DNA of 64,000 nucleotides from a virus (lineage: Duplodnaviria > Heunggongvirae > Uroviricota > Caudoviricetes). Shown one piece after another: positions 16,413 to 59,255 of this stretch. A model generated the notes under the pieces. That model ran no database searches, had not been told where the DNA came from, and saw only the letters and a program-made list of their open reading frames with translations. The position numbers and the translations under genes are program-made. Location: IMG/VR virus record IMGVR_UViG_3300046462_000479; one strand, given 5' to 3'. Numbering within the stretch: position 1 is the stretch's first letter; each line of letters opens with the position of its first letter.

Positions 16413-16417
16413 TCAAC

Positions 16418-29148: not shown

Positions 29149-29152
29149 CCCA

Positions 29153-29761: not shown

Positions 29762-29783
29762 CGTCCCCTCCCTTCCGCGCGTG

Positions 29784-30244: not shown

Positions 30245-30268
30245 TGTTACCTCCTGTTGACTATCGGC

Positions 30269-39804: not shown

Positions 39805-40163
39805 GGGTTGGCGTTATCGAACGGCGGTCCGATCAGCGTGTTGATGCTGGTCGGTTGTTCCGAGAACCCTTCGTCGCCGACGGCGTTGATCATCGTCAGC
39901 CGGTCCCACAAAGTGAACTGTTCGGCTTTGCAGTCGTCGCCGGAGAAGAACAGGTCGAAGTCAGGGTCGCCGGTTGTTTCGTCGGCCTTACGGATCGCCT
40001 CGACGCCGCCCTGCATCATGCCGTGCGCTTCCCGGTAGCAGCGGAGTATCTGGGCGGGAGCGTAGATCGGTTCGCCGTGGCCGTCGAACCCCTGCCATGA
40101 CTCCCACTTGACGCGGGCGGTCATCATCGCGGAAATCTCAGGAGGGCAGGAAGGGATCGGCAT
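39780..40163 (-). CDS. head closure-like protein (127 aa)
   Basis: Position and size. Confidence 0.45.
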   Translation of the reverse strand: MPIPSCPPEISAMMTARVKWESWQGFDGHGEPIYAPAQILRCYREAHGMMQGGVEAIRKADETTGDPDFDLFFSGDDCKAEQFTLWDRLTMINAVGDEGFSEQPTSINTLIGPPFDNANPWLIVVAT

Positions 40164-40648
40164 CAGAACACCTCTTCGTCAAGGACGAGGCTTTCCCCCT
40201 CGACGGTGTCGGGAAGCGTGTCGGTGGTGTAGCCGCCCACCCACGGGTTCTCCATCATGTTCTTCGTGAACATCGGCGCGATCAGGCCGGAGTCCTGGCC
40301 GATCGTCATCTTGTCGGCCGCGGTCATGCCGCCGATGTAGGGGACGACAGTGCCCATCGCCTTGCTGCGCAGCATCCTGGCCATGGTGAACCAGCCTTGC
40401 GCCATCTTGGTGTACTGCACCTGCATCGACCTGCCCAGCCGGACGTCGGCTTTGCGCAGGACGCGGCGGCCGATCATTTCGGCGCAGCGGGCGCATCCAG
40501 CCCAGAAGTTCCGTTCCTGGGTGAGCGCGTAGGCGATCTCTTCGTCTTGGAGCTGCTGGTCTCTAGGGTCGGTGTCTTGCAGTTCGGCCCGGACCTGGTA
40601 GACCTCGTTGGTGGCCAGCTCGCTGGGGTTGTAGCTCCACGGCATCAT
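40163..40648 (-). CDS. head-tail connector (gp6-like) protein
   Basis: N-terminal SELATNEVYQVRAELQDTDPRDQQLQDEEIAYALTQ. Confidence 0.5.
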   Translation of the reverse strand: MMPWSYNPSELATNEVYQVRAELQDTDPRDQQLQDEEIAYALTQERNFWAGCARCAEMIGRRVLRKADVRLGRSMQVQYTKMAQGWFTMARMLRSKAMGTVVPYIGGMTAADKMTIGQDSGLIAPMFTKNMMENPWVGGYTTDTLPDTVEGESLVLDEEVF

Positions 40649-40956
40649 GTCACCTCTAGGACACCGGATAGCAGCACCGGGATTTCCGGGCTGTCTGTGA
40701 CTTTCACGTACACATCATAGAATCCGGCTGGGAGGACGACGGCTCCGCCGGGGCCGACCAGGCAGCGGGCGTAGTAGATGCCGTTCAGGGTGCTCCACGA
40801 TCCCGCGTAGAACGCGGTCGGTTCGGCTGCGGGGTCGGGGAACGCGAACGTGACTGTGTCTCCGGTCGGGTCGCCTCCGGTTGCTTCCGAGATGGGAACC
40901 CTCACGTATTGCAGCGAGGCGCTGTTGATCTGTAGGTCGGCGAGGCTGGCTGTCAT
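40645..40956 (-). CDS. hypothetical Ig-like protein (103 aa)
   Basis: Internal ATG; 4-nt overlap with the upstream gene. Confidence 0.5.
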   Translation of the reverse strand: MTASLADLQINSASLQYVRVPISEATGGDPTGDTVTFAFPDPAAEPTAFYAGSWSTLNGIYYARCLVGPGGAVVLPAGFYDVYVKVTDSPEIPVLLSGVLEVT

Positions 40957-43900
40957 AGCGGCTTTCCTGCGCTCCAATCTTGGTCTGTGTCGTCTGTCTG
41001 AATATCGACGCTCATTCTTCCGGTAGCCCATCCTGATTCTGGCGGGCAGACGGTGTAGTCGGCACCGACGCAGGTCAGTCTTCCGGTCGCCCAGCCGGAC
41101 TCCGGCAGGCCCGCCTTGAAGTACAGGTTCTGGGCTCTGACCGCGGTCGGCGGAACGATCCGGTACTTGGGCTGGCGTCGGTTGCGTCTGAGCGCGTCCT
41201 TGACCGCGACCAGCACGACGGTGAGGACAAGGATCGCGATCCTGCGTGCCGCCAACGTGGTCGGCGGGAAGATGCGGGTGTGCGGCCCGCGCCGTACCGC
41301 TTCCCGTTGGATGCGGCCGTTAAGGACAACCCTGATCGTCGACTGGCTGCGGTCGGGAAGTCGGTATGCGCCCTGGACGATCTTGCGGACGACAGTCGGC
41401 CGCGGCCTGATGCGGACCAGCCTGACCAGCGGACCGAAGAACACCTGCAGGACGGTCGGCTCTCCGAGAACCTTACTGGTCGGCCTAGGCCGTATACGGG
41501 CCAGCGTGACCCGGATCGTCTGCTCGGCCTGCTCGACGGACGGCACCCTGACCTTGGTCGGAATCCGGAGGAATCGGCTGGTCGGACGCGGCCTGGTGGC
41601 GACGGTATGGACGGACGGTCCAGCGAAGACCCGCAATGTCTGCGGCTCGCCGAGCGTCTTGCTGGTCGGCTTGGGCCTGGCGTGGGTGAGCGTGACCGCG
41701 ACAACGGTCTCGACCGGAGGAGTGGAGACGACGGTCGGCTCTCCGAGAACGTGGATGGTGGGTCTCGGCCTGGTGCGGACGAGACTGATGGCAAGCGTGC
41801 GCAGCTTCTGTTCGACCGACGGGACACGAACAACCTGCGGCTCTCCGAGTGTCTTGACGGTCGGACGCGGCCGAGTGTGGGTGAGCCACACAAACGGCCC
41901 GTAGAACGCCGCCTTAGCGACAACAGCCGGTTCAGCCAGGAACGAGCGCGGAGCCCGTCTCTGAGCTTCCAGGCGCGTCCTGAACGCCCTGGTGACGCTG
42001 ATGCTGCTCGTCTGCGGGTAGAAGATGAGCGGACCGAGCGTGCGCCTCGTCGGCCTCGGCCTGATCCTGGCCAGAGCGACCTGGATCGTCTGCATCCGCT
42101 GGGTCGGCAGCGGGATGACAACCGTCGGCGGCCGCAGGACAGAATGGGCTGGCCTGGTGACCCGCCTGACGGTGGCAACCTTGACCGGCGCCTGTGGCGG
42201 TGCGGCAACAATCGTGGGCGGCTGCAGCCTGCGGACGGTCGGCCTGGGCCTAGTCCGAACCAGGTCGACTCTGATCGTCTGTTCCTGCTGCTCGACAGAC
42301 GGAACACGGACAACCTGTGGCGGGCGCAGGAATGAATGGGCGGGCCGCCGCTTGTCTTCCAGCGGTATCCGTACCGCGACCTCGGTTTCTACCGGGCCGA
42401 AGAACTCCTGCAGTGTCGTCGGAGGCGGCAGGAACGCACGAGTCTTGCGTGGCCTTGTGTGAACGAGCGTGACAACGATCTCGCTGGTCTGCGAGTAGAA
42501 GACGGCAGCGAGACGGCGAACAGTCGGCCGCGGCCGGATCCGTGTCAGCGCGACAAGGATCCTGCTCGTCTGCGAGTAGACGGTGTAGCCGAGCTTGGTC
42601 CCGACTGTCGGCCTCGGCCTGATACGGGCCAGGTGGACGGCAGGGCCGTAGTAGATTTGGCCGACGGGGATGACGACTGCCGGTGGCGACAGTTTGGAAT
42701 GCGGCAGGCGACGGCGGTCCTCGACCGGGATACGTACAGCAACCTCTGCTTCGACCGGACCAGCAAAAACCTGTAGGGCCTGTGGCTGCCCGAGCGTTTT
42801 CGTGGTAGGCCGCGGCCGAGCCCGGACCAGATCGACCCTGATCGTCTGCTCCGCCTGCTCAACCGACGGGACACGAACAACCTGCGGCGGAGCGAGGAAG
42901 TAGCGGGTCTCACGCGGCCTGGTACGGACAGCCGCGACCACGACCTCGCTGGTTTGCGGGTAGACGGTGTAGCCGAGCCGGGTGCCGAGCGTATGCCGTG
43001 GCCGCGTGTGGACAAGATCGACGCGGATGGTGTCTTCGGCCAGCTCGATCGAGTACGGGGTGAGCGTCGCCGGAGGAGCAAGCAGCCAGACGGTGTGGCG
43101 CGGCCGGATACGGGCCAGCTCGGAGACGATCTCCAGCCGCCGGTCGGGAGCCCGCAGGTACGGCTCGACAACGGTGGTCTGGAAGAAACGCCGGGTGGGC
43201 CTCGGCCTGGTATGGACGAGCGGTGCGAGCGGCCCGTTGTAGACAGCACGGTTAATGACCTGCGGCTGGCCGAGATCCTTTGTGGTCGGCCGTGGCCGCG
43301 TGCGGACGAGCGTGACGCTGATCGTCTGCTCTCGGTGCTCAACACTGGGGACACGAACGGCCTGTGGTTCACCGAGAACATGGACGGTTGGCCGCGGCCG
43401 CGTGTGGGCCAGCCATGTTCTCGGACCCTGGAAGATCTGAAGTACGGTCGGCGGGCTAAGGAACGTTCTGGTCTTGCGCGGCCTAGCATGGGCCAGCCCG
43501 ACCAAGATCTCGCTGGTCTGCGCGTAGAAGAACGGCGGCCCGAGGTTCGACATCGGCGGCCGACGGTGCCTCCGGTTGAACCGGTCGATGGAGAGCAGGT
43601 TGACGGACGGCCCTTGGAACGTCTGCAGGACGGTCGGAGGACTGAGGAGCGAAGATGGGAAGTGGCGTCGCCCGAATCCGCGGAGCCGGTTGTCCTGGAG
43701 GTTGACGCTGATCAGCGGAGCAACGAACCCGGTTGCGGCGGGAACAAACCCGAACAGCGTGGCCGTCGTCCGGCGCGGCCGGGTGCGCGTCAGCTTCGTC
43801 TTGACGACGAGCTGGCCGGGCGTCGTGACGACCGCGAGCGGCCGGAGGTACAGGGCCGTCGTGAACGTCTTGGTGGTCGGCCTCGGCCGCGTCTTTACAA

Positions 43901-45494
43901 GGTCGACGCGAATCGGTGACGCGACGAACACGGCCGTCGTGATGACGGCGGGCGGAGCGAGCCGAGAGAACGTCCGGCGCGGCCGCGTCCTGGCGACGGC
44001 GACGGCGACATTCTCGGCGATCGGCGACGAGACGACCGTCGGCCCGTATAGGACGCTCATCGCGAGCCGCGCCGACGTGTTCCGGGACGCGCCGACAGCC
44101 CCCGTCGTCAGCCACGTCTGGACGGTTTCGATCCGCTGCGACGGCGGCGCGTTGAATACCTGCGGTGGCGCGATGCCCGCTACGGTGCGGCGACGGACCC
44201 GCGTGACACGCGACGAGGAGACGGCGACGGTAGTGACACTGACCGGCTCGGGGAGCGGCGGCGGCTGCGCGAGCGTCCCAACGGGGAACAGGAGCGACTT
44301 CGGGGCGCGCCGCTGCGCCTGCGCCCGGAGCATCACTGCGACGTCGAACGCGACCCCTTGGTTGATGGTCTGCTGTTGCTGCGAGATGGGAGCTGCCAGG
44401 ATCAGAGGTGGCTTCGGCCCGAGGAACGGCGACCGGTAAACAACCGATGTCTGCGGGATGGATCCTCCGCTGAAGTTGTCGAGGTTTGCGCCAGTCGCGA
44501 AAACGCTCGTCCGGATGTACGGGTAGTAGACGTCGGGCAGGAACGTGGAGTCACTGACTGAGATAGCGAGGAGCCAGTCGGTCGGGGTGGCGCCGTTCTT
44601 CTTCACCCAGACGGTGAGGCGTGTCCCTTCGCGCCTGAGACGGTACGAGTTACCCGCTGCGACCCCGGCGGCAGTAGACCCGGTACCTAGAGTGCTCCCG
44701 GATCCTTTGACGACCTTTATGAGCGTGATGGCTCCTCCGGACTGGGCGAATTGAACGTCGTAGCCGTTCTGGTCGCTGGCGTTCGGTCCAGCCGGTTGCG
44801 CGTTGAGTCCGAGGTTGAAAAAAGAGGCGACGGGCGCCGTGACGGAGTCGACGGCGACCTCGCAATACGGGCCGAATGGTTCTGCCCGGACAGCGATGGT
44901 CGAGCCAGATGTCGAACAGGCCACGTTCGACGTGATCGTGATAGAGCCAGCGAATCCGAATACCGGAGTCACCCAGTCCGGCCCGAGCGCCGCCCTGTTG
45001 AAGTCGTCGATCAGCCCGGATATCGCCGTCGGGACGTCCGTGTACGCCTGAACGTCGACCCATCCCGGGAGCGGGAACCGGCGCTTCTCCGAGATACGCC
45101 GCGACTGACTAGCGAGCGCGACCGTGATCGTCTGCTGCCGTTGGGTCGGAAGCGGCGTTACGAGTTGCGGAGGCTTCGGACCGAGGAGCGGACTGCGAAG
45201 CTGAACGATCTGCGTTCCGCCATCCGACAGCGACGTAGCTCTAGTGAGGCCGCCGTCCCAGCCCTGTAACGGGAACCGGCGTGTCCGGCCGTGGCCACGG
45301 TCGAGACGGTCGACGGCGAGGTTGACGTCTAGCGTCGTAACGACCGGCGGATTCGACGCGTTGGTGACCTCGGCGGGAGTGTGCGGGCCGATGTTGCTGC
45401 CGGAACCGGCGCCGTAGGAAGTGCCGTCTCCCTGGTCGGCGAGTGCAGGTGTTACGAACGCCTGCTGCTGTATGCCGCGGCCTATGCGCGGCAT
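40953..45494 (-). CDS. giant repeat protein (1513 aa): ~330-aa lectin-like N-terminal domain plus ~22 tandem 30-45-aa repeats ending in (T/I)RPR(P/K)T
   Basis: Uninterrupted 4.5-kb ORF; repeated VRVPSVEQxEQTIRVxLVRTRPRPT units. Confidence 0.7.
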   Translation of the reverse strand: MPRIGRGIQQQAFVTPALADQGDGTSYGAGSGSNIGPHTPAEVTNASNPPVVTTLDVNLAVDRLDRGHGRTRRFPLQGWDGGLTRATSLSDGGTQIVQLRSPLLGPKPPQLVTPLPTQRQQTITVALASQSRRISEKRRFPLPGWVDVQAYTDVPTAISGLIDDFNRAALGPDWVTPVFGFAGSITITSNVACSTSGSTIAVRAEPFGPYCEVAVDSVTAPVASFFNLGLNAQPAGPNASDQNGYDVQFAQSGGAITLIKVVKGSGSTLGTGSTAAGVAAGNSYRLRREGTRLTVWVKKNGATPTDWLLAISVSDSTFLPDVYYPYIRTSVFATGANLDNFSGGSIPQTSVVYRSPFLGPKPPLILAAPISQQQQTINQGVAFDVAVMLRAQAQRRAPKSLLFPVGTLAQPPPLPEPVSVTTVAVSSSRVTRVRRRTVAGIAPPQVFNAPPSQRIETVQTWLTTGAVGASRNTSARLAMSVLYGPTVVSSPIAENVAVAVARTRPRRTFSRLAPPAVITTAVFVASPIRVDLVKTRPRPTTKTFTTALYLRPLAVVTTPGQLVVKTKLTRTRPRRTTATLFGFVPAATGFVAPLISVNLQDNRLRGFGRRHFPSSLLSPPTVLQTFQGPSVNLLSIDRFNRRHRRPPMSNLGPPFFYAQTSEILVGLAHARPRKTRTFLSPPTVLQIFQGPRTWLAHTRPRPTVHVLGEPQAVRVPSVEHREQTISVTLVRTRPRPTTKDLGQPQVINRAVYNGPLAPLVHTRPRPTRRFFQTTVVEPYLRAPDRRLEIVSELARIRPRHTVWLLAPPATLTPYSIELAEDTIRVDLVHTRPRHTLGTRLGYTVYPQTSEVVVAAVRTRPRETRYFLAPPQVVRVPSVEQAEQTIRVDLVRARPRPTTKTLGQPQALQVFAGPVEAEVAVRIPVEDRRRLPHSKLSPPAVVIPVGQIYYGPAVHLARIRPRPTVGTKLGYTVYSQTSRILVALTRIRPRPTVRRLAAVFYSQTSEIVVTLVHTRPRKTRAFLPPPTTLQEFFGPVETEVAVRIPLEDKRRPAHSFLRPPQVVRVPSVEQQEQTIRVDLVRTRPRPTVRRLQPPTIVAAPPQAPVKVATVRRVTRPAHSVLRPPTVVIPLPTQRMQTIQVALARIRPRPTRRTLGPLIFYPQTSSISVTRAFRTRLEAQRRAPRSFLAEPAVVAKAAFYGPFVWLTHTRPRPTVKTLGEPQVVRVPSVEQKLRTLAISLVRTRPRPTIHVLGEPTVVSTPPVETVVAVTLTHARPKPTSKTLGEPQTLRVFAGPSVHTVATRPRPTSRFLRIPTKVRVPSVEQAEQTIRVTLARIRPRPTSKVLGEPTVLQVFFGPLVRLVRIRPRPTVVRKIVQGAYRLPDRSQSTIRVVLNGRIQREAVRRGPHTRIFPPTTLAARRIAILVLTVVLVAVKDALRRNRRQPKYRIVPPTAVRAQNLYFKAGLPESGWATGRLTCVGADYTVCPPESGWATGRMSVDIQTDDTDQDWSAGKPL
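41290..44060 (-). repeat. in-frame tandem DNA repeats (~100-130-bp units) inside the giant gene
   Basis: Recurrent GGCCTCGGCCTG...GATCGTCTGC nucleotide blocks. Confidence 0.6.
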
Positions 45495-45796
45495 CGCGAC
45501 CTACCTAGAGGCGGTTCCCCTGGTCGAGCGGGTCCGGCGCGGACAGCGCGACGGACGCGGCGGACGGTGACGCGGCGGCGGACGCGGGGCCTCCGCGCGA
45601 GCCGTCCAGCGATCAGGCGAACGGTCGTGAGGATCGGCCGGAACCACCTGACCGTGATTCGTTGGAGCGTCCGCGGCTGCCGGACGAGTGCGACTCTGAG
45701 CGTCCGCATTTCTATCGGTGGGAGTGCCATCGGCGCGATGACGGCGGGTGGGGGAAGGGCGCAGTTGGCTCGCACGGCTAGAGGATACTCCGCGGC

Positions 45797-46366
45797 CTAA
45801 AGCATTCCGTAGAGGGTGGCGACGCTTCCAGCAACGAAGTTCGCTCCGCCCGCGGCGACGAGTTGGAGGTCGTTGATGGCGGCGGTGTTCCGCCAGAGGC
45901 CGGTGAGGAGGCCGATGAAGCAGTCGGCCAGCGTCGATGAGAGGTAGCAGGTGTTCCCGAACACGTTCTTGAAGTTGCCGACGGTCGCGTAGCCGGGGAC
46001 GACAAGCTCGCCTGTCCCGAACCGGTTCGCGGGGGACGCGCCACCGCCTTCGAGGACAGCCCACGCGGCCGTCTGCGCTACGCCGCCCGCACCGGACACC
46101 GCGCTCGTCCCTCCGGCGATCATCTCTTCGCGGTCGTAGTTCGCGCCCGAGTCGCCGTTGAAACGGATCAGCGTCTCGGACGCATTCGTGCTACCCCCGT
46201 CGTCGCGGAGGTAGGTGACGCAGCGGAGCGCCCGGAACGTCTGCGGGATGTTCGCGAACTCGATAGTCGGGGTGGCGACACTGATGACGCGCGAGTCGAT
46301 CTCGGTGAGCCCGGACAGGACAGTTGCGCCTGCCGCCGACCCAGGAGTGATGAACACGCTTGACAT
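45797..46366 (-). CDS. hypothetical structural protein (189 aa)
   Basis: ORF track. Confidence 0.5.
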   Translation of the reverse strand: MSSVFITPGSAAGATVLSGLTEIDSRVISVATPTIEFANIPQTFRALRCVTYLRDDGGSTNASETLIRFNGDSGANYDREEMIAGGTSAVSGAGGVAQTAAWAVLEGGGASPANRFGTGELVVPGYATVGNFKNVFGNTCYLSSTLADCFIGLLTGLWRNTAAINDLQLVAAGGANFVAGSVATLYGML

Positions 46367-46391
46367 GCGGGGAGAGTATCGCTGCTTACGG

Positions 46392-47273
46392 CTAGTGGCC
46401 GGGAGGGAGTAGGACCTGCATCGAACTCCACGGCATGTTGTTCGACAAGACCAGGCCGTTCGCGTTGCCGGGGTCGAGGGTGATGCCGAGCGACGACCAG
46501 TCGGCGTCGTTGACGGCTCCGCCAGCCCGGTCTGACCCGTGGATGGTCATGTTGCTGCCGCCGTCGCGGCAGAGCATCCCGTAGTTCTGGAGGGCACGGC
46601 AGACCATCTTCTCAAACAAGTTCAGGGTGAGCGTGTCAGGGTTGACGTTCGGGTTGAGGCGCATCCATGCGCCGAACGTGAGGCCGGTCCCTGCTCCTCC
46701 GAATGATGTGTTGGCCGGGTACGGGCATGGGGCCGGGCCGACGTTCGCCATGTTGAATACGAGGGCGTGGTTGATCTGGCCGGAGGCGACGTCGACGGCG
46801 CTGATGATGGCGCGGCCGAGCGGGAACCGGGCGGCGTTCGCGTTCCCGGGTTGCGGCTCCTGGTCGGCTCCGAGCGGGAACGAGACGCCGAACGCGCAGC
46901 CGGTGATCCGTTGCGTCCCGGAATCGTAGGTGACGCCGCTCATGTCGTGTTCGCGGCTGTGGATCGGGTCCTTGACGGTGAGGTGATGGTCGGTGGAGAC
47001 GCCGGGCTGGGTGCCGAGCGGGATGTAGAGGGTCGCGTCGAGGAACGCGCTTCCGGGGACGGCGTAGCCGGGCGAGTCGGATTGGGTGACGGCGGTCGCG
47101 ACGTCGGCCGCGAACGTAGCCTGGTTAGCGCCGACGCCTGCGGTGGCGACCCACGTGGAGACGAGCGACACGGTGTTGGGGTCGAGGGTGGCTCCTCGGG
47201 CGGACCAGGCCCATGGTCCGAACTGCGGCCCGGGCTGGAGCGCTGGCGGCGTGGGGAAGTGCGGTTGCCGCAT
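46392..47273 (-). CDS. structural-module protein, paralog of 48990..50024 (293 aa)
   Basis: Shared GPWAW...YIPLGTQPG..DHHLTV.DP.HSR...NANAARFPL blocks. Confidence 0.55.
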   Translation of the reverse strand: MRQPHFPTPPALQPGPQFGPWAWSARGATLDPNTVSLVSTWVATAGVGANQATFAADVATAVTQSDSPGYAVPGSAFLDATLYIPLGTQPGVSTDHHLTVKDPIHSREHDMSGVTYDSGTQRITGCAFGVSFPLGADQEPQPGNANAARFPLGRAIISAVDVASGQINHALVFNMANVGPAPCPYPANTSFGGAGTGLTFGAWMRLNPNVNPDTLTLNLFEKMVCRALQNYGMLCRDGGSNMTIHGSDRAGGAVNDADWSSLGITLDPGNANGLVLSNNMPWSSMQVLLPPGH

Positions 47274-48631
47274 CAGGTGAACGTCGGGACGAGGATGTCG
47301 TGGCGGGGAACCCAGAGCCGCCCCTTGCGCGCCCACTTGTCGCCCAGACAGTAGACGGAGGCCCGGTTCACGGCCTGGCCGATCACCTGGAGCGAGAACG
47401 GATCACTCCGATCTTGCGCCTCTTGCCCTTGGAACACGCCGGGGGCGTAGTCGACGTAGATCCCGATCGCGCAGCACATCGCGATACGCGTCGACGAAGT
47501 GACTTGGGTGATCCGGCAGACGGGCGCAGTCCCCTTCACCACTGATGGGAACTGCTGCCTCGCGCCGAACGAACACTTCCAGCCTGCGCCGTAGGTGCCT
47601 GCCGTGAAACCACTCCAAAATGCTCCCGACGTTCCGGTCGCGTTCAATGAAACGTTGGCGACGGTCGGGTTAGACACGATCCCGAACGTGCCCGCCTTCG
47701 CGCTCGTTGTGACGGGGGCTCCAGTGATAACGAACTCCCAGAGCGCCACGATGCCGTCCAGTGCTGCAATACCCGCGGCAGCGTAGGTAGTCATTGTTGC
47801 GTTGTAGTTGACGTTCGCGTTCGAGGTCGCATTACGGATCTGATGGAGACCGTTGCCGCCGGTCGTGTCCGCGATACCAGCAGGCGGCGCGTTATCGACC
47901 GCGTTGAACAATCCGGTCGCTCCTGCGTTGTCGCGCGTCCAGCCTGTCCCGACCGCACTGTCCGCGGTCGGGACGAGCAGCACAACTTTTCCTGGACCAC
48001 ACCAGCCTGTGTTAGCTGTCCCGGTCGAGTCGTTCAGGGCGATGTCGTCGATGTTGATGGTTTTGCTCGCGCCCGGGGCCTCCCACCAGCCCCACTGAAT
48101 GTTCGACGTTCTGGCTACGCTTCCGCTCCAGGTCGCCACGGTGATGCCGTCCAGGAGAAGCGTGGCGGACGTCCAGTTGCTGGTTGCCGTTGCTACGGCT
48201 TGTATCTCGACGCGGTGCCAGGTGCCGTCGTTCATAACTGCCGACGGTGAACCTTGCGCTGCCCCGCTGACGACCAGTTCTAAAGCGCCGTCGGTGCGGA
48301 GACGGGCTGCCGGATTGTTTCCCGCATTCGTCCCGAATCCGAACACCCTGGCCGCAGAGGACGGGGTCGCCGAGGTGAGCAGGTAGGCGCGGATAGAGTA
48401 GGTGACCCCATCGACGCCGAGGGTGTAGCCAGCCTGGCTGGGAAGGTTGTACCCGGTAGGGTTGTTGCCGACACCCGAGTCGGATTTGTATGAGGCGGCA
48501 CCGCTGCGGAACACCACAGTGTCTCGCGTCGCGCCGATTCCACTGTTTCCGTCAGGGCTGGCGTCGGCGAGTGGGCCTCCAGCGGGTACCGCGCCGTCAA
48601 CTTCGGCTCCTGCGTGCCAGAGTCGCGCCAA
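47273..48631 (-). CDS. lectin/ConA-like structural protein (452 aa)
   Basis: ORF track; beta-rich composition. Confidence 0.55.
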   Translation of the reverse strand: MARLWHAGAEVDGAVPAGGPLADASPDGNSGIGATRDTVVFRSGAASYKSDSGVGNNPTGYNLPSQAGYTLGVDGVTYSIRAYLLTSATPSSAARVFGFGTNAGNNPAARLRTDGALELVVSGAAQGSPSAVMNDGTWHRVEIQAVATATSNWTSATLLLDGITVATWSGSVARTSNIQWGWWEAPGASKTINIDDIALNDSTGTANTGWCGPGKVVLLVPTADSAVGTGWTRDNAGATGLFNAVDNAPPAGIADTTGGNGLHQIRNATSNANVNYNATMTTYAAAGIAALDGIVALWEFVITGAPVTTSAKAGTFGIVSNPTVANVSLNATGTSGAFWSGFTAGTYGAGWKCSFGARQQFPSVVKGTAPVCRITQVTSSTRIAMCCAIGIYVDYAPGVFQGQEAQDRSDPFSLQVIGQAVNRASVYCLGDKWARKGRLWVPRHDILVPTFT

Positions 48632-48635
48632 GGGT

Positions 48636-48980
48636 CTAGGTCGCCTGTTCTGTGGTTTCGATGATCAGTGGACCTTCGTAGCCTTGCGCCTGGTAGTCGT
48701 ACTTGTAGACCTCGACCGTGTAGGTGCCCGCTACGGGCGCGGACGCGGTGATCGTCCCGCACGTGTGAACACCCGCAACTGTCCATCTCTGCTCGGTCAG
48801 GTCGGGCGCAACAACGACAACGTCAAGGTAACGGCCTCCAAAGTTGCAGAGGGTGATGTCGAACGTTCCCCCGGCCACGGTCGGGTTGGGGCTAGTGGTG
48901 ACGGTCGCGTTCGTCGCGTCCGCGGACGCGACGACCACCGCGGCAACTAAAGCCGCGCAGATGAGCAGAAGCTTCTTCAC
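48636..48980 (-). CDS. small secreted Ig-like protein (signal peptide; 114 aa)
   Basis: MKKLLLICAALVAAVVVASA signal peptide. Confidence 0.55.
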   Translation of the reverse strand: MKKLLLICAALVAAVVVASADATNATVTTSPNPTVAGGTFDITLCNFGGRYLDVVVVAPDLTEQRWTVAGVHTCGTITASAPVAGTYTVEVYKYDYQAQGYEGPLIIETTEQAT

Positions 48981-48989
48981 GGTTCCTCC

Positions 48990-50024
48990 TTACGGGGACG
49001 GTGGCGTGAGGACCTGCATCCTCGACCAGGGGATCGGCCCGAGCTGACGCGCGTACGGGTAGGCGGGACTGTAGGCCGGGTTTGTGATCGGCAGCGTGAC
49101 GCCGACCGCTCCCCAGGAGGTCGCCTGGCCGCCCTGGTTGACGGCGTCGAGCGCGTAGATGGCGACGTTTGAGCCGAGGTCGCGGAGGAACATTCCGTAC
49201 TGCTGGAGCGCGTAACACATCAGCTTCTCGAGGGTCGGCAGGATGAGCGCGTCGACGTTGACGGTCGGGTCGAGGCGGAGCCAGGTTCCGAGGCCGAGGC
49301 CGGTGCCGCCGGGCGCCTGCCCGTTTGCTGGATACCGGGTCGGGCTTCCGACGTTCGCCATCGAGAACACGAGCGGATGCAGGATCGCGCCGCCCGCGAT
49401 GTCGGCGGGCGTGATCAGCCCCTCGATGAGCGGGAACCGGGCCGCGTTCGAGTTGCCGGGCGCGGGCTCCTGTACGGCTCCGGGAGCGAACGACGTGCCG
49501 CCCTGGCACGACCAGACCGATCCGTTGAAGCTGGCCTCCCAGAGGTCGGACTGGCGGCTGTGGACAGGGTCCTGGACGGTGAGGTGGTGGTCGCTGTTGT
49601 GGCCCGGCTGGGTGCCGACGGGGATGTAGACGGACGCGTCGAACGGGCCGCCGCCCGAGATGGCGTAGGCGGGCGAGCCGCCATCGGTGTCGGCGCGGGC
49701 GACGGACGCCTCGAAGTAGTAGCCGCCGCCGTTGGTGGCGAGCCATGTTGAGATCATCGCCGCCGAGTTCGGGTCTATGGCTGCCTGGGTCGCGTCCCAC
49801 GCCCACGGGCCGCTAGACGGCGGGGGCGGGACAGGCGCAGGTGCTGTCGGTGCAACCAGTTGACCGGCTTCGGCGCGTGCGGCGGCGATCAGCGTGAGCG
49901 CGTTCGCCCAATTCGTTCCCGGAGGAGGCGTCGTCCATTTCCGGTTGATGTAGCCGACCGTCGTCTGCTTCAAGGCTGCAACAGCCTGGTCGAGTTTTGC
50001 TTGAACGTCCTGCGGGGATGCCAT
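48990..50024 (-). CDS. structural-module protein, paralog of 46392..47273 (344 aa)
   Basis: See the paralog. Confidence 0.55.
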   Translation of the reverse strand: MASPQDVQAKLDQAVAALKQTTVGYINRKWTTPPPGTNWANALTLIAAARAEAGQLVAPTAPAPVPPPPSSGPWAWDATQAAIDPNSAAMISTWLATNGGGYYFEASVARADTDGGSPAYAISGGGPFDASVYIPVGTQPGHNSDHHLTVQDPVHSRQSDLWEASFNGSVWSCQGGTSFAPGAVQEPAPGNSNAARFPLIEGLITPADIAGGAILHPLVFSMANVGSPTRYPANGQAPGGTGLGLGTWLRLDPTVNVDALILPTLEKLMCYALQQYGMFLRDLGSNVAIYALDAVNQGGQATSWGAVGVTLPITNPAYSPAYPYARQLGPIPWSRMQVLTPPSP

Positions 50025-50767
50025 TACTCCTCATCTTCAGGTATCTCTGCTGTTTCTATCGCCACCTGGAAGCCGTCGGCGATCGTGAGCCCAGTCATCC
50101 ACCGGTCCTCCTTCTCCGACCAGGACGGCCACACTGTCGTGCCGACAAGATGGCCTAGCCGTGCTGCCGTGTCGACATGGATCTTGAAGCCAGCTTCGGT
50201 GGCGCGGATGCAGAAGTTGACGTCCTCGCTGATTCTTCGTCCTTGGCTGTCGCGTCCGAGTTCGAACCAGGGAGGGTCGATGGTCTCGATTACTGATCTG
50301 CGGATCAGCATCCCGGACGAGCCCGAGAACTGGACCTCGACCAGCTCGTCGGGACCGTACAGGCTGAGGTCCATGAAGTTGTCGTCGACGGTCGGGACGG
50401 GAAGGAACGGCTGCTGGCGGCGGAGGCAGAGCGGGGCAGCAATGTCGACATTGCGGGTGAGGAGCTGCACGAGTATGTCGGGCCGGAACGAGTGGTCATC
50501 GTCGATGAACCAGATCCATTCGCCGTGGATCTCCGCACATGCCTGATTGCGCAGCTCGGAGATGTCGGAACCGATCTTCGGCTTGACAACCGACCCGGCG
50601 GGGATCTGGAGTCCCATCAGGTTTAGCCAGAAGAGGGTGTAGCGGGCCGCCTCGTTGGCGAGCATGACGACGGTTCCAGGCTGGTTCTCCGGCTGGTTCA
50701 TCAGCACAGCCATCTCTTCCAATTGGTCGATCCTCATCAGCGTCCTTTCATGCGTGCATGTCGGCAA
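50024..50767 (-). CDS. putative GT-A-fold glycosyltransferase (DxD: WIWFIDDDH)
   Basis: DxD motif and EDVNFCI; paralogous to 50748..51440. Confidence 0.55.
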   Translation of the reverse strand: MPTCTHERTLMRIDQLEEMAVLMNQPENQPGTVVMLANEAARYTLFWLNLMGLQIPAGSVVKPKIGSDISELRNQACAEIHGEWIWFIDDDHSFRPDILVQLLTRNVDIAAPLCLRRQQPFLPVPTVDDNFMDLSLYGPDELVEVQFSGSSGMLIRRSVIETIDPPWFELGRDSQGRRISEDVNFCIRATEAGFKIHVDTAARLGHLVGTTVWPSWSEKEDRWMTGLTIADGFQVAIETAEIPEDEE

Positions 50768-51440
50768 AAACCCAGCCTGACTTGGGAGGAATCGTGAGCT
50801 GGTAGCCGCCCATCATCGAGAACCCGTAGGTCCAGCCGTCAGGCTCACGGACAGGCCAGACGCAGGACGTGCAGGAATGTCCGAGATACGCGTCCAGGTC
50901 ACACCAGATCCGGAGCCCGGCTTCGCGCGCCTTGATGCAGAAGTTCACGTCCTCTCCTACCCGGTTAGTGATGCCGGTCCCCGTCTCGAACCATGGTTCC
51001 GGAATGTCGTCCAGAACGCTCAGACGGATCAGCAGACCGGCGGCACCGGAAGCGGCCAGCTCGACCAGGCCTCCGTCCGGGTAGTCGTCCAGGTTCAGGC
51101 GGGCCGTCTCGCCGTCTCCTATGTCGATCCAGTTGACGGGACGGTAGGGCGGGTTCCGCATCAGACAGAGCGGGATAACGATGTCGAGGTCGTGGGCGAG
51201 CAGCTTCCGCAGCAGATCAGGAGACCAGACATGGTCGTCTCCCATCAGCCACACCCATTCCTTGCCTCTGTCCAGCGCCTCCTGCAGGAGCGCGTTCTGG
51301 CCGTCAGCGAGGTCCCAGCCGTACCTGAACTTCGTCTCCCACCCGTCCGGCATGTCCGTCTCCGCAAGCGACCCGGCAAAGGTGCTGAAGCGTGCGGACT
51401 CTTGCGCGATCACTCCGATCAGGCCGCCTGCAGGATGCAC
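50748..51440 (-). CDS. putative GT-A-fold glycosyltransferase (WVWLMGDDH)
   Basis: Paralog of the preceding gene. Confidence 0.55.
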   Translation of the reverse strand: MHPAGGLIGVIAQESARFSTFAGSLAETDMPDGWETKFRYGWDLADGQNALLQEALDRGKEWVWLMGDDHVWSPDLLRKLLAHDLDIVIPLCLMRNPPYRPVNWIDIGDGETARLNLDDYPDGGLVELAASGAAGLLIRLSVLDDIPEPWFETGTGITNRVGEDVNFCIKAREAGLRIWCDLDAYLGHSCTSCVWPVREPDGWTYGFSMMGGYQLTIPPKSGWVFADMHA

Positions 51441-51916
51441 GTCAGCCCCCCTTCGCTCAGGTCTCCGTGGACTCGTTCCATCCGCTCGGGGATATCGCTG
51501 TCAAAGAACTCGTAGCCGTAGTCGTGGATGACGGCGAGGCTGCCAACGTCGAGATACGGAGCAAACGTCGCAATCTCCCTAGGCTTATCGGGACCGTCGC
51601 AATGAAGAATTACGGGCGACAGATCAAAATCTCTAACGACATAGGGGATATTCTTCCAAATATCCATCTGGTTAAAGTATCCAGCAAGCCAATCTATCTC
51701 CGGGTCGGCAATGTCGTAGGTCTGAAAGATCATGTTTCTATGCCACGCCTGATCGGAAAGATAGAGAGCGAAGCCGCCGATTCCAGTCCCGAGTTCGATG
51801 ATCTGTTCGACCTCGGGGTGGAGGTTGAGGAGTTTCTCCCAGACGAGGTAGTCGTGCCACCACTGGTGCGCCTCAACGCCGCAGTAGCTGGTGGTCATCT
51901 CCTGGACGGAGATCAC
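51419..51916 (-). CDS. class I SAM-dependent methyltransferase-like (TylF/CmcI-like) protein
   Basis: IIELGTGIGGFALYL motif I; VILHCDG. Confidence 0.5.
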   Translation of the reverse strand: MISVQEMTTSYCGVEAHQWWHDYLVWEKLLNLHPEVEQIIELGTGIGGFALYLSDQAWHRNMIFQTYDIADPEIDWLAGYFNQMDIWKNIPYVVRDFDLSPVILHCDGPDKPREIATFAPYLDVGSLAVIHDYGYEFFDSDIPERMERVHGDLSEGGLTCILQAA

Positions 51917-52152
51917 TTGATCTGTTGCAGCAAGAGCGGGTACGGACCCCTGGCTTTAAGCCTGCCGTCGATCACATACTCGACCTCGTCTAGCGTGCCC
52001 CCGACACCGTTCGCTGTTGGGGGGTCCCACCAGTCCAGCAGCTTGCCTTCCGGGAGAGTGGCCGCAGCCACAATGGGGCTTCCTCCCAGGCAGCGGATCA
52101 CATGCTCGTGGGAGACCTTCTTCGGTTTGCTTGTGCGTTGCCTTGCCATCAT
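51913..52152 (-). CDS. hypothetical protein (79 aa)
   Basis: Internal ATG; ATGA overlap. Confidence 0.4.
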   Translation of the reverse strand: MMARQRTSKPKKVSHEHVIRCLGGSPIVAAATLPEGKLLDWWDPPTANGVGGTLDEVEYVIDGRLKARGPYPLLLQQIK

Positions 52153-52481
52153 TTCTCCTTCGGGATAGGCGGTCCGCTGTAGTCCCACCACAGCCGTTCG
52201 CCTTGGTGGCTGACTTCGAACATCCAGTCGATCCCGTGCTGGTTGGCACGCCGGACGATGTCTGCCAGACAAGAGCCGTCCCGCTGTCGGCCCGGACAGT
52301 CCACAGGACAATCGCAACCAATCTGCATGGTCCTGATACAAGGAGACGGCATCGCCTTGGACTCAACAGGAATCTCGTATCCGTCTTCGTCGACTGGCAG
52401 CTCCACGTCCCGGACGATCTGGCGGCGGCCGGTAAGACCGGCACCCATGATTTCTGGTATCTCGCTCATGGACGGCAGCAT
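52149..52481 (-). CDS. Cys-rich hypothetical protein (110 aa)
   Basis: ORF track. Confidence 0.45.
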   Translation of the reverse strand: MLPSMSEIPEIMGAGLTGRRQIVRDVELPVDEDGYEIPVESKAMPSPCIRTMQIGCDCPVDCPGRQRDGSCLADIVRRANQHGIDWMFEVSHQGERLWWDYSGPPIPKEK

Positions 52482-52549
52482 ACGCCTCCTTAACGACAGA
52501 GGGCCCCCGAAGGGGCCCTCTGAGGTAGCCAGTTCAACCGAGATCTATC

Positions 52550-53074
52550 TTAGACCTCGACCGTGATACCGACGTAGCAGTTGACCGCAGCGCCCGCCGT
52601 GGTGCGATGGCGGAGGAACCCGGCCTGCACGATCTCCGGCTCGCGCCCGAGCGGATACTGGATGTAGATACCAGACGTGGGCGGAACGAAGTGCGTTGAC
52701 AGGTTGCGGACCGTGCCTGTCGGCGTAACCTCCGTCGCCCCGGTACCGAACCCGGAAGCGTTCGAGGCCAGCGAGAACATCGAGCCCGTCGACTGAGACG
52801 ACGCGTTCGGGTCGTTCGCCGGTGCGATGTCCGCGGACGCGTATGTCGTCAGCGTCGTCTGCGGCGCCGTGGTGTTGGCGATCAGCTCAACCGTGATCGG
52901 CGTCGCTGCCGCGGAGCCGTTGAACTCCGTCCACCATTCCACGACACGGTAGGTCCAGCCTGCCGTGGTGAGCAACTGCATCATCGTCTTGATCGCCGTG
53001 CCTGTCGTGATCGACACCGCTGCTGCCGCACCCGGCACCGCTCCGTTCATGATCGTGTAAGTCTTCGCAGCCAT
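52550..53074 (-). CDS. hypothetical virion protein (174 aa)
   Basis: ORF track. Confidence 0.5.
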   Translation of the reverse strand: MAAKTYTIMNGAVPGAAAAVSITTGTAIKTMMQLLTTAGWTYRVVEWWTEFNGSAAATPITVELIANTTAPQTTLTTYASADIAPANDPNASSQSTGSMFSLASNASGFGTGATEVTPTGTVRNLSTHFVPPTSGIYIQYPLGREPEIVQAGFLRHRTTAGAAVNCYVGITVEV

Positions 53075-53090
53075 TTCTCACTCCCTTCGC

Positions 53091-53309
53091 TTACTGCCGG
53101 GGCTGGTTCAGCAGAACCACGCCTTTTTCTTCTGAGTGGTACATGCGGTGATGTTGTTTCATCAGTAAACCCATCTGTCTGCGCGGGCCCATCGCGTGGT
53201 AGCCGCACAGTTCACAGTCGACAACCATGTCTCCGTCAGCGTCGAACGGGCTCCTATACGTCTCCTTGTTGAAGCTGGGAAGACGGGGAGCAACCACAAT
53301 CTGGCTCAT
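53091..53309 (-). CDS. C2H2-like Zn-finger small protein (72 aa)
   Basis: CELCGYH...HHRMYH. Confidence 0.4.
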   Translation of the reverse strand: MSQIVVAPRLPSFNKETYRSPFDADGDMVVDCELCGYHAMGPRRQMGLLMKQHHRMYHSEEKGVVLLNQPRQ

Positions 53310-53611
53310 CAGGATCCCGACGCCAGGAAGGAAACGTTTGATCCGGTCGATGCCACGATCCCGTAGATCGCCTCGTCCAGATGGAGCAGGATCTGCAAGG
53401 TCGTGGACGCAGCCATCGGATACCCGTTGGCCGTTGTCACGCCTTGCGGGCCGAGGAACACGGTCGCTCCTGAGCTGTTGGACAAGAAGATGCTCCTGTT
53501 CGGGTTCTGATACCCGCCCTGCGACTGGCCATAGGTCGGGTTCGGGGCTGGGACGATCTGTTTCCCTCCCACCGTGGTATCGACCGCAACCGTTCCGGAC
53601 GTGAGTGCCAC
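53309..53611 (-). CDS. hypothetical protein (100 aa)
   Basis: ORF track. Confidence 0.45.
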   Translation of the reverse strand: MALTSGTVAVDTTVGGKQIVPAPNPTYGQSQGGYQNPNRSIFLSNSSGATVFLGPQGVTTANGYPMAASTTLQILLHLDEAIYGIVASTGSNVSFLASGS

Positions 53612-53900: not shown

Positions 53901-54371
53901 TCACCCTCCTAACGCGGCCTCTGCCGCCGTTGCCGCGTCTTCGCCGCGTACCCGCGACCCGTCACTCAGCGTGTACCAGCCACCCCCTGTGTGTTCCGGG
54001 AAGGAGTGTGACATGTCACCCTGGTCTTCCTCTTCTTCGGCTTCTGGTTCGTCCTCGCTTACGGGCTGGACGGCATCCCGTTCCACTCCCTCGTAGTTCA
54101 GGTAGGAGTGGGTCGGGTCAGACAGGCCGTGCCCTGTTGGGGCAGCCGGATCAGGCAGCTGCCCCACGCTGGGCCAGTCTTCGCCGTCGTCTGGGACGTT
54201 GATGGCCATCATGGCGGCCTTCCCGAGTTCCACCAGATTGTCGGCCGCGCGTCCCCACTCGCCCGCAGGGATGACATCCCCAGGCTCGTAATCCACGATT
54301 AGACCAGAACCGATCGGATGTTCGGCCTTGATGGGCTTAACCGCGACGTAGGAGAAGACGATGTGAGGCAT
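53901..54371 (-). CDS. acidic hypothetical head-module protein (156 aa), containing an internal palindrome
   Basis: ORF track. Confidence 0.5.
   Translation of the reverse strand: MPHIVFSYVAVKPIKAEHPIGSGLIVDYEPGDVIPAGEWGRAADNLVELGKAAMMAINVPDDGEDWPSVGQLPDPAAPTGHGLSDPTHSYLNYEGVERDAVQPVSEDEPEAEEEEDQGDMSHSFPEHTGGGWYTLSDGSRVRGEDAATAAEAALGG
54006..54021. repeat. palindrome variant GTGTGACATGTCACCC inside a CDS; its central ATG is in frame
   Basis: Two mismatches. Confidence 0.8.
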
Positions 54372-55364
54372 TTACGCAGACACCGCCGTGTGGAAGTAGG
54401 CGCCGAGATCGGCGCCGACGATCTTGACAGCGAAGGCAAGCTCGCCCTCGATGCGGATCGTGCCGATGCCAAGCCACGGCATCGGGATCTGACTGATCCT
54501 GCTTCCGAACGCGCCCGCACCCAGAAGGCCTACCCAGGTGAAGATGTATCCGGCCGACGGAACCATGATCCCCGGCTGCGGCTCCGCGTAGAGCAGCAGC
54601 GCGTCCAGGGTCGGAGCGATGAACGCGAAGCTGTCAGCGCCACCCTGGTTGCCGTTGTTGATGATCGCGGCAGCAACGAGCACCTGGAAGTTGTCCACGC
54701 CAGGCGGAGCGATCAGCGACGCGAGCAGATCGGTCGTAACCACACCACGCTGGGTGTACTTGATGCGCTGCACGATCTCGTCGTGGTTCTTCAAGACCTC
54801 CCACACGCGCGGCCCCAACACGAACTTGTTCGGGAACTTGCCTGTGTTCTGCTTGATCGACCACACCTGCGCCTCGATGTCTTCCAGCGGCGTCGAGTTG
54901 GCCAGGTTCCACTGCGGCGACGGAACAATGTCCGCCCCGGTCGTGGAACCAGTCCACGTGGACACCGCCAGAATCGTTGCCTGAACCAGAACCTCTCTGG
55001 CCAGCAGCATCCGGTGCGTAATCCACAGCGTCGCGTCACGGTCGGCGTTCAGCGGCACATCGGAGTTGGCCCGGATCTGCGGGTCGACGTCCTTGTGGAA
55101 CGCGTAGAGCGGAGCGTAATACGACGGAGTGTTGTCCAGGTTGTATCCGCCACCGACCGACTCGGTCGACGGGGCACGGACCTGTGCTTCGTTCCGGAAC
55201 CAGTCGCCCTTCGTGTACACGAAGTACCTGTCGGACTGCTTCTGTACCGGCACGACAGGGAACACCTTGTCGGCGATGTAGTCCGAAGAGTCCTGCATGT
55301 ACGCCTGGCTGATGTTCGTCAGCGGGCGGTTAACGTGTACTTGGGCAAGATATGGCTCAGCCAT
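54372..55364 (-). CDS. major capsid protein (330 aa)
   Basis: Position after the scaffold; size; capsid-like composition. Confidence 0.6.
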   Translation of the reverse strand: MAEPYLAQVHVNRPLTNISQAYMQDSSDYIADKVFPVVPVQKQSDRYFVYTKGDWFRNEAQVRAPSTESVGGGYNLDNTPSYYAPLYAFHKDVDPQIRANSDVPLNADRDATLWITHRMLLAREVLVQATILAVSTWTGSTTGADIVPSPQWNLANSTPLEDIEAQVWSIKQNTGKFPNKFVLGPRVWEVLKNHDEIVQRIKYTQRGVVTTDLLASLIAPPGVDNFQVLVAAAIINNGNQGGADSFAFIAPTLDALLLYAEPQPGIMVPSAGYIFTWVGLLGAGAFGSRISQIPMPWLGIGTIRIEGELAFAVKIVGADLGAYFHTAVSA

Positions 55365-55385: not shown

Positions 55386-55820
55386 TTAGTCGCCCGCCGC
55401 AACCAGCCCGGAAGGCTGGAACAGCATCGAAGAAATGATTCCCGTGGACCCGGCTTCCATTGCCACGCCGAGGACCTGGGTTCCAGACACGGTGTACGGG
55501 GTACCCGTGAACACCGTTGCGCCTGTGTACTTGACTGCGCGGCCGGACGAGTCGGAGGAGAGCAGATCTCCTGCGTTGAACGATCCGCCGCACAGCACCT
55601 TGCTTGGCCCGCCAGTCCTGACCTGGCAGCCGATCGGGATCGCCGTCGTGCCGACCGGAGCGTCCTGCAGGACACCGAGTGCCCTCTGCCCGGTCGCGCA
55701 AGTGGCGATCATCCCGGTCGATGCCAGCTGGATGAACTTGAACTGGTTTGACGCCATCGTCGTGTTACACGTGAAGGTGAAATCCCAGCCTACGTTGGTG
55801 CCGAAAGCAGGTCCAGCCAC
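55386..55820 (-). CDS. putative head decoration protein (144 aa)
   Basis: Lies between the scaffold and the capsid gene. Confidence 0.4.
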   Translation of the reverse strand: MAGPAFGTNVGWDFTFTCNTTMASNQFKFIQLASTGMIATCATGQRALGVLQDAPVGTTAIPIGCQVRTGGPSKVLCGGSFNAGDLLSSDSSGRAVKYTGATVFTGTPYTVSGTQVLGVAMEAGSTGIISSMLFQPSGLVAAGD

Positions 55821-59239: not shown

Positions 59240-59255
59240 GTGTGACATGTCACAC
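59240..59255. repeat. 16-bp palindrome 9 nt upstream of the protease-fusion start
   Basis: Perfect match. Confidence 0.9.

Follow-up and report, generated by a model that had tools for sequence, protein, structure and literature searches.

A mobile glycosyltransferase cassette in an accessory island of an uncultured siphophage, a candidate locus for glycosylated virion fibres

The late operon of the tailed phage recorded in IMG/VR as IMGVR_UViG_3300046462_000479 raises the question of what two glycosyltransferases (GTs) do among virion genes, and which protein they would modify. We analysed a stretch of 64,000 nucleotides of this genome (here called the window), in which a block at positions 45797 to 51916 had been singled out as a module of about 6 kb inserted between the head and neck genes and holding GTs, a methyltransferase-like protein, a pair of paralogs and adhesion-type proteins. 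The open reading frames (ORFs) and motifs named in that original prediction are all present where it placed them, on the minus strand. We favor, with somewhat more confidence than doubt, the reading that these genes belong to an accessory, late-expressed island for building a fibre or adhesion apparatus that is glycosylated, and that the glycan acceptor is itself encoded in the island.

The eight ORFs of the block are co-oriented, mostly overlap or lie a few bases apart, and show the GC bias at third codon positions (GC3) of real genes. To delimit the element they belong to, we compared relatives of the phage, namely 19 IMG/VR contigs with a capsid protein 74-84% identical to that of the window, mapped on the window proteins (contigs and loci are designated below by L and a number). 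This mapping revealed a conserved backbone with a single hypervariable slot. The slot is bounded by a gene of 100 amino acids (aa) (53309-53611), the last of the conserved head genes, and by a 161-aa gene (40163-40648) with which the conserved connector genes begin. In L018 the order is capsid, 159 aa, 99 aa and then the 161-aa connector gene, with nothing between; the junction is likewise empty in L172, and in L013, L017 and L023 it is filled by unrelated cargo of 4.6-6.8 kb. Because the slot is empty in some relatives and differently filled in others, the block is accessory, as had been proposed. Its proposed size does not stand: the island extends from about 40645 to 53309, approximately 12.7 kb with 14 genes (from a 72-aa gene to a 128-aa gene), and the block first noticed covers the middle 6 kb. 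It also follows from the slot mapping that the genes at 51.9-53.3 kb, formerly counted as the end of the head genes, are not head genes and belong to the accessory unit, and that the 128-aa gene does not count among the conserved connector genes. Three parts make up the island, which is a mosaic: a GT cassette, a group of adhesion-type proteins, and a giant repeat protein with a follower gene. A recent foreign origin on the basis of base composition was considered and dropped; the higher GC at 40-50 kb is due to amino-acid composition, and the island GC3 matches that of the rest of the phage, so a compositional sign of recent import is absent.

The cassette genes lie on the minus strand and are translationally coupled within the late operon. 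The first (53091-53309) encodes a 72-aa protein whose translation shows a C-x2-C...H-x3-H (C2H2-like, zinc-finger-like) pattern. It is followed by a 174-aa single jelly-roll protein (52550-53074), which is the most conserved cassette member, and by a 110-aa protein (52149-52481) that is Cys-rich in translation (CDCPVDCPGRQRDGSC). Next come a 78-aa ORF called by the source annotation (51913-52149), for which we saw no homolog in related loci, and an optional member, a 165-aa protein (51419-51916) that resembles class I S-adenosylmethionine (SAM) methyltransferases. Two GT-A glycosyltransferase paralogs complete the series: paralog 1, with 230 aa (50748-51440; WVWLMGDDH and EDVNFCI; match to phrog_1574), and paralog 2, with 247 aa, or 237 aa from the source start (50024-50767; WIWFIDDDH and EDVNFCI). 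The predicted tandem relationship of these two was borne out, with 38% identity over 215 aa (E = 1e-47). The 247-aa GT scores above the Pfam cut-offs for Glyco_tranf_2_3 (33.0 bits; cut-off 27) and Glycos_transf_2 (24.6 bits; cut-off 23.3), and the 230-aa GT alone stays below threshold for Pfam GT2-type models (19 bits). D90-D91-H92 (as DDDH or GDDH), a DxD-type acidic motif, and E181-D182 are invariant in an alignment of four cassette GTs. Both island GTs are soluble, with neither a transmembrane segment nor a signal peptide.

A profile built from the island GTs retrieved 271 relatives in IMG/VR. At the closest GT loci, homologs of the 174-aa protein adjoin the GTs, often together with homologs of the 72-aa, 110-aa and methyltransferase-like proteins. 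The 174-aa gene is accompanied by homologs of the 72-aa protein (40-48% identity) in L026/L094, L093, L098 and L172; homologs of the 110-aa protein adjoin GTs in L026, L093 and L172, and those of the 165-aa protein do so in L026, L106, L173, L180-L183 and L255. One gene set (72-aa, 174-aa, GT, GT, 110-aa) occurs at three sites in related structural operons: the head/neck junction (window and L026/L094), portal/MuF (L093 and L098) and tape measure/minor tail (L172). The cassette is also found in phages that otherwise have nothing in common with the window (L095, L096, L106 and L173). It is a self-contained, horizontally mobile unit. The number of GT copies in tandem varies from one to five, the upper end being reached in L183 and in L255, a contig of a metagenome-assembled genome (MAG) of Actinomycetes, each with a 174-aa gene, a methyltransferase-like gene and five GTs. 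Such variable tandem numbers fit a stepwise assembly of an oligosaccharide.

The 165-aa protein had been described as a TylF/CmcI-like methyltransferase. Its IIELGTGIGG segment supports the broader half of this description, as the core ELGTGIGG (SAM motif I, E/D-x-G-x-G-x-G) is invariant in six homologs. The subfamily label did not survive comparison with curated models, all of which leave the protein below threshold: the CmcI model PF04989 gives 13.1 bits (cut-off 23.2; E = 0.08), the TylF model PF05711 gives no match, and the NCBIfam model for rhamnosyl O-methyltransferase gives 13.2 bits (cut-off 400; E = 0.04). Moreover, a profile of the six homologs searched against the Protein Data Bank (PDB) returned no CmcI or TylF structure, its sole match being flavivirus NS5 methyltransferase at E = 1.6. 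We rejected this match and one of the single sequence to a generic methyltransferase (E = 0.015) as a basis for naming a subfamily. One homolog bears the name 'cephalosporin hydroxylase' in the Joint Genome Institute annotation. We therefore describe the protein as methyltransferase-like, with no further subfamily.

The 174-aa jelly-roll protein, which the original prediction did not mention, is the gene to which the GT cassette is tied. Its homologs at the closest GT loci are 56-66% identical and thus more conserved than the GTs themselves. The linkage is also seen from the jelly-roll side: the island GT family is present at 9 of the 12 IMG/VR loci that encode a homolog of at least 56% identity, and the three other contigs stop 0.5-4 kb past the jelly-roll gene on its downstream side, in one case within a methyltransferase-like gene. 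L172 and L173, both found by this route, each carry the GT pair. The family has more than 2274 members in metagenomes and none in Pfam, PHROGs, PDB sequences or 50,697 GenBank phage records (the last searched by tblastn, with a distant homolog also tried). In fold class the protein resembles Bacillus endospore appendage subunits, PBSX XepA, a phage cement protein, a turret protein and TNF/C1q-like domains including that of BclA, a likeness that fixes fold class and not function. Jelly-roll proteins known from phages as capsid cement, decoration or turret components (KHP40 gp16, HFTV1 gp30 and PRD1 P5) are among its closest known counterparts. The genes next to distant members match podophage fibre and adaptor families (Gp80 fibre and SU10 adaptor) as well as Gp77, LamG, beta-helix, polysaccharide lyase and collagen families, which places the jelly-roll family in a fibre and adsorption neighbourhood. 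The GT-linked subfamily differs by added Thr and Pro residues in three loop segments (PQTT, TEVTPTGT and PPTSG), and these Thr/Pro-rich loops are suggestive of candidate O-glycosylation sites. We regard the 174-aa protein as a candidate glycan acceptor or surface subunit.

A second candidate acceptor, and a candidate fibre, is the giant basic repeat protein of 1513 aa (40953-45494, minus strand). It has an isoelectric point of 11.7, contains about 11% each of R, P, T and V, and carries 21 RPR motifs in degenerate protein repeats of 30-60 aa, ending in an acidic, Trp-rich C terminus; no tandem repeats were found at the DNA level in its gene. A possible transmembrane anchor at hydrophobic residues 1413-1431 was rejected, as it is not conserved in the L026 homolog. 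Homologs of this protein accompany the GT cassette in L026/L094, L093, L095, L106 and L173. It is followed by the 128-aa gene (103 aa in the source annotation; 40645-41031, minus strand). The proteins encoded directly upstream of 128-aa homologs have unrelated bodies and all end in repeated W-x-x-G-x-P, at five loci including an Amycolatopsis prophage-like region (window, 40953-41110; L017, 8186-9226; L094, 10919-14362; L007, 3163-4260; L260, 10512-12281). The 128-aa gene is present only with such an upstream protein, in these same loci, and is absent from L018, L013, L023 and L172. This pattern suggests that the W-x-x-G-x-P tails and the follower form a docking system for interchangeable fibres, in which the 128-aa protein could be a docking adaptor or a chaperone for the fibre preceding it.

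The cargo of other relatives repeats the theme with different parts. In L013 (6085-10686) and L023 (15797-17504) the slot holds collagen-repeat proteins of 837 aa and about 210 aa (Pfam Collagen, E = 1e-27), together with a GT4 (Glycos_transf_1; E = 1e-12 and 1e-17) unrelated to the GT-A pair. Since a fibre and a GT recur in the slot with unrelated parts, we interpret it as a site that encodes glycosylated virion fibres. Glycosylated collagen-like surface fibres are familiar from BclA of the Bacillus exosporium and from giant-virus fibrils. The window fibre differs from these in being an Arg/Pro/Thr/Val-rich basic repeat protein and not collagen-like, and the resemblance to BclA is at the level of fold class only.

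The window contains a further GT set, and with it a different possible target. To our knowledge, a few mycobacteriophages are the only phages for which virion glycosylation has been demonstrated to date; in them it shields the particles from antibodies. In PMC11600133 and PMC11256854, which cite Freeman et al. 2023, phage GTs encoded beside an O-methyltransferase are described as modifying capsid and tail-tube proteins of Cluster O and Cluster F mycobacteriophages; Cluster O, which includes Corndog, has three tandem GTs downstream of the O-methyltransferase, and Che8 belongs to Cluster F1. The precedent invoked in the original prediction, which named Corndog, is thus supported. The window resembles the Che8 and Corndog systems in having tandem soluble GTs beside an O-methyltransferase-type gene in a siphophage of a high-GC Gram-positive host. 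Unlike them, it has two unrelated GT sets, of which the island set is mobile and tied to jelly-roll and fibre genes and not to capsid and tail genes, and its glycosylation is a prediction from genes. The second set, predicted earlier beside the portal and confirmed by Pfam matches at 61010-63742, comprises two GT2 genes (62780-63742 and 62007-62966; Glycos_transf_2, 25.7 and 78.9 bits) and a 334-aa SAM methyltransferase (61010-62014; Methyltransf_11, 42 bits), all on the minus strand. The earlier tally of four GTs and two methyltransferases in the virion region can be kept for the GT-A/GT2 enzymes; one methyltransferase is solid and the other only putative. No sequence similarity was found between the portal-proximal GT2s and the island GTs. 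Across the lineage the GT2 pair is conserved and the methyltransferase is not; in lineage loci that keep the pair, the 334-aa protein has no close homolog, the sole match being one of 25% identity in L098.

One could therefore ask whether all four GTs and both methyltransferases decorate capsid and tail tube with a methylated O-glycan, as in Che8 and Corndog, with the island GTs adding extra steps. The mycobacteriophage systems described in PMC11600133 and PMC11256854 and the presence of two GT sets in one virion operon speak for this possibility, and the lineage-conserved GT2 pair could serve conserved capsid and tail proteins; its conservation makes it the better candidate for general capsid and tail glycosylation of the mycobacteriophage type. 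For the island enzymes the pattern is different. Their cassette is mobile independently of the capsid and tail genes, structural proteins unrelated to those of the window accompany it in L095, L096, L106 and L173, relatives with an 80-84% identical capsid protein (L013 and L018) lack it, the lengths of the capsid protein and of the tail-tube protein are the same with and without it, and its GTs are not homologous to the mycobacteriophage enzymes. We consider a shared capsid and tail-tube target unlikely. Independent movement of the cassette, and its absence from relatives with near-identical capsids, make an island-encoded acceptor more likely than the capsid or tail tube, and co-occurrence points to cassette-internal or fibre proteins as the probable acceptors instead of the capsid or tail tube specifically.

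Between the cassette and the giant repeat gene lie the adhesion-type genes, among which two paralogs of an uncharacterised family stand out. Paralog A (344 aa; 48990-50024, minus strand) consists of an N-terminal helical hairpin, a Pro-rich linker and an uncharacterised domain of about 270 aa, and its AlphaFold2 model has a pLDDT of 84. Paralog B (293 aa, in an ORF extending to 314 aa; 46392-47273, minus strand) has the catalytic-like domain only, without the hairpin, and its start overlaps the stop of the upstream gene. The predicted paralogy holds, with 48% identity over 292 aa (E = 1e-83). Residues D145, H216, R250, Y276, G277 and D282 (paralog A numbering) are invariant in the family and are kept by both window paralogs. 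A word-indexed search recovered 17 matches to this family, and a full profile search recovered 10,466 representatives at E <= 1e-3; searching the same GenBank phage records with paralog A (tblastn) gave no match. Bacterial multidomain members carry signal peptides and CBM60, ricin, NPCBM, F5/8-C, malectin, SUEL, LamG and Ig/fn3 modules. The core itself has no Pfam model, no PDB sequence or fold match, and no match to a characterised catalytic domain of CAZyme or lysin families. From these partners we infer that the paralog domain is a glycan-active enzyme, either virion-associated or lytic.

The lytic option deserves separate consideration, since the pair could be cell-wall hydrolases of the endolysin kind, representing a displaced lysis function with no part in adsorption. 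No recognisable endolysin domain is present in the other 39 window ORFs or after the tail genes, and bacterial members of the family are secreted. In addition, L005 has a second, distant copy of the family (14832-16514) behind three small membrane proteins where the late operon ends, an arrangement that resembles a lysis cassette. Set against this, approximately 10-13 kb of the genome lie outside the window and may hold a lysin, and the partner domains are carbohydrate-binding modules and lectins and not LysM, SH3 or peptidoglycan-binding domains. Closer homologs are located among connector or tail genes; the one in L007/L008 sits between two connector genes, and the one in L005 follows tail genes. 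The N-terminal helical module of paralog A is, moreover, typical of virion-attached proteins. A lysis role for the pair appears quite improbable to us.

The remaining adhesion-type genes are all on the minus strand. A 452-aa protein (47273-48631; phrog_14065 and phrog_2448) begins at a TTG codon, a start supported by the alignment of Streptomyces phage Galactica gp11 from residue 1. Its N-terminal 223 aa are shared with this 1103-aa 'minor tail protein' of Hiyaavirus (blastp, E = 3e-14), and tblastn finds 30-35% identity to Hiyaa, Galactica, Keanu and Spocter. The gene order in Galactica is major capsid protein, methyltransferase, two hypotheticals, gp11 and head-to-tail adaptor. The Hiyaavirus slot (Galactica genes 7-12; Hiyaa gp13) resembles the island in position, with the major capsid protein on one side and the head-to-tail adaptor on the other. 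It has a small methyltransferase gene, and then comes the gene of the very large 'minor tail protein'; the homology to the 452-aa protein covers the N-terminal 214 aa of that product. The slot differs in having no GT genes, jelly-roll protein or paralog pair, and the methyltransferases are not detectably related. The lectin-like label previously given to the 452-aa protein is weakly supported, as its one match, to Sial-lect-inser, is below threshold (16.5 bits; cut-off 25.8; E = 0.007) and neither a Laminin_G_3 match nor a match among PDB sequences was found. A relationship to the cassette-adjacent Laminin_G_3 proteins of L172 and L173 was also rejected, there being no detectable similarity. 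The 189-aa protein (45797-46366) resembles the C-terminal domain of a tail-tip-region protein; across 87% of its length it is 28% identical to the C terminus of Streptomyces phage Intolerant gp29, which is encoded among minor tail genes, and it is 42% identical to a 183-aa gene product in L007. For part of the block, then, the suggested receptor-binding or adhesion role is plausible, in view of the 452-aa N terminus, the 189-aa domain and the carbohydrate-binding modules of the paralog family.

A 114-aa protein (48636-48980) stands apart from these. It has an N-terminal Sec-type signal peptide, KKLLLICAALVAAVVVASADA, with a Kyte-Doolittle hydropathy of 2.49 over residues 4-22, and we found no homolog in any related locus examined. 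The signal peptide attributed to it is thus confirmed, and the accompanying Ig-like label is weakly supported, by sub-threshold matches to Cadherin-like (16.5 bits; cut-off 24.2; E = 0.011) and PPC (15.4 bits; cut-off 25.9; E = 0.035). We regard it as an orphan, possibly a beta-sandwich, and likely a moron. A variable junction at this gene, where the contigs L002 and L003 end, was considered and dropped; four metagenomic contigs carry the same phage, all 99.9-100% identical to the window.

Taken together, these observations allow a model to be proposed. The island genes would be expressed late, together with the structural operon. The soluble GTs would then build a short, possibly methylated glycan on an island-encoded protein of the virion surface, either the jelly-roll protein or the repeat fibre or both. 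Docking of the fibre close to the neck would rely on the W-x-x-G-x-P repeats at its C terminus together with the follower protein, and the lectin-like and glycan-active proteins may help to bind or cut glycans of the host envelope at adsorption.

Several points weigh against this reading. The 174-aa protein is 56-83% identical across phages whose structural proteins are otherwise unrelated, which is unusual for a lattice-bound capsid protein, and its distant relatives (35-50% identity) mostly have no GT nearby (GTs at 8 of 68 by blastx, and in 3 of 146 neighbour proteins by Pfam). The methyltransferase call is sub-threshold, the best Pfam model being Methyltransf_23 at E = 0.004. Searched by tblastn against the GenBank phage records, neither the island GT nor the portal-proximal GT2 used as query matches any mycobacteriophage; the GTs are not detectably homologous to the Che8 and Corndog enzymes. 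The signal peptide of the 114-aa protein means that one island protein is probably not a part of the virion, and for the paralog core, which has no fold match, the term glycan-active rests only on domain partners. Glycosylation of the virion, the identity of the acceptor, the location of the products in the particle and the enzymatic activity of the paralogs are all predictions from gene content and context. Finally, the island GT family occurs in the cyanomyophage S-TIM5 (L263, 16050-16724) among auxiliary metabolic genes, away from structural genes, and cyanomyophage genes are its nearest relatives in isolated phages.

This last finding bears on a further possibility, a GT cassette of the moron or auxiliary kind whose target lies outside the virion (a host envelope glycan, a small molecule or a peptide, for instance) and which could serve superinfection exclusion or host takeover. 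Its occurrence in S-TIM5 would suit such a role, as would the assignment of related GT families in PHROGs to 'moron, auxiliary metabolic gene and host takeover', weak NCBIfam matches to polysaccharide and mycofactocin GTs, and the secreted orphan protein in the island. Yet the GTs have no transmembrane segments or signal peptides, no Gtr-type flippase or lipid-carrier GT is present, and the cassette itself is always inside structural operons, co-oriented and translationally coupled, with a persistent linkage to jelly-roll and fibre-like proteins. We judge a non-virion target to be rather improbable, and retain an island-encoded virion protein as the preferred acceptor. A bolder version of the preferred reading, speculative and on balance unlikely in its full form, is a portable glyco-fibre kit. 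The jelly-roll protein would be an acceptor or priming scaffold for a methylated oligosaccharide whose length is set by the number of GTs (one to five), the kit could be plugged in anywhere in a structural operon, the W-x-x-G-x-P repeats would be a code read by the 128-aa protein, and the paralogs would form a new family of carbohydrate-active enzymes with a new fold.

The wider setting of the island was fixed by PHROG and Pfam scans of the window proteins. The window has a GC content of about 61%, and the late operon, on the minus strand, extends from approximately 64 kb down to 28.6 kb. As predicted, the island is flanked upstream by the portal (59255-60697; PHROG/Pfam), a 734-aa MuF/His_Phos_1/S78-protease head protein (57027-59231; PHROG and precomputed Pfam), the scaffold (55386-55820) and the major capsid protein (54372-55364), and downstream, beyond the connector, by the tail terminator (38792-39361), the major tail protein (37915-38325) and the tape measure (32826-36740), with tail chaperones also present. 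The His_Phos_1 (histidine phosphatase) domain within the MuF-like/S78 protease protein is an unusual fusion. A 156-aa protein is encoded directly after the capsid gene (53901-54371), and its residues 93-153 match an Arc-like repressor PHROG (E = 1e-8). After the tape measure there are just two proteins, of 671 and 181 aa, and then a PLD-like 202-aa protein and non-structural genes (28654-32826), a tail-tip module that is very small for a siphophage; with only these two proteins there, the island may encode some of the adsorption apparatus. The early region on the plus strand (1-28650) encodes Ku, Band_7/SPFH, a circularly permuted YpsA SLOG protein, a C5 DNA methylase, ParB_N, a PD-(D/E)XK nuclease and a STAND NTPase. 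A scan for promoters and terminators gave nothing beyond shuffled expectation.

By capsid protein, the nearest isolates are Roseobacter RDJL and Arthrobacter phages, at only about 40% identity, and a megablast search of the 45797-51916 block against the GenBank phage records gave no match. The source is an uncultured, soil-type siphophage whose host is probably a member of the Actinomycetota. We read the host in this way from the Actinomycetes MAG, from Streptomyces, Amycolatopsis and Acrocarpospora genomes that encode distant relatives of the jelly-roll protein, from a Gaiellaceae homolog of the paralog family, and from similarities to Streptomyces and Arthrobacter phages.

The locus belongs with known phage virion glycosylation and with variable fibre loci, to which it adds the jelly-roll/GT cassette, the paralog family and a putative docking motif as new components. 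It suggests that virion glycosylation is a modular and mobile trait, widespread in uncultured soil phages. It also raises three candidates: a small jelly-roll protein as glycan acceptor, an abundant family without a known fold that is associated with carbohydrate-binding modules, and a plug-in mode of fibre docking. If these hold true, they would be of use in phage engineering, for glycan shields and for swapping host range, and in the annotation of thousands of 'hypothetical' metagenomic proteins.

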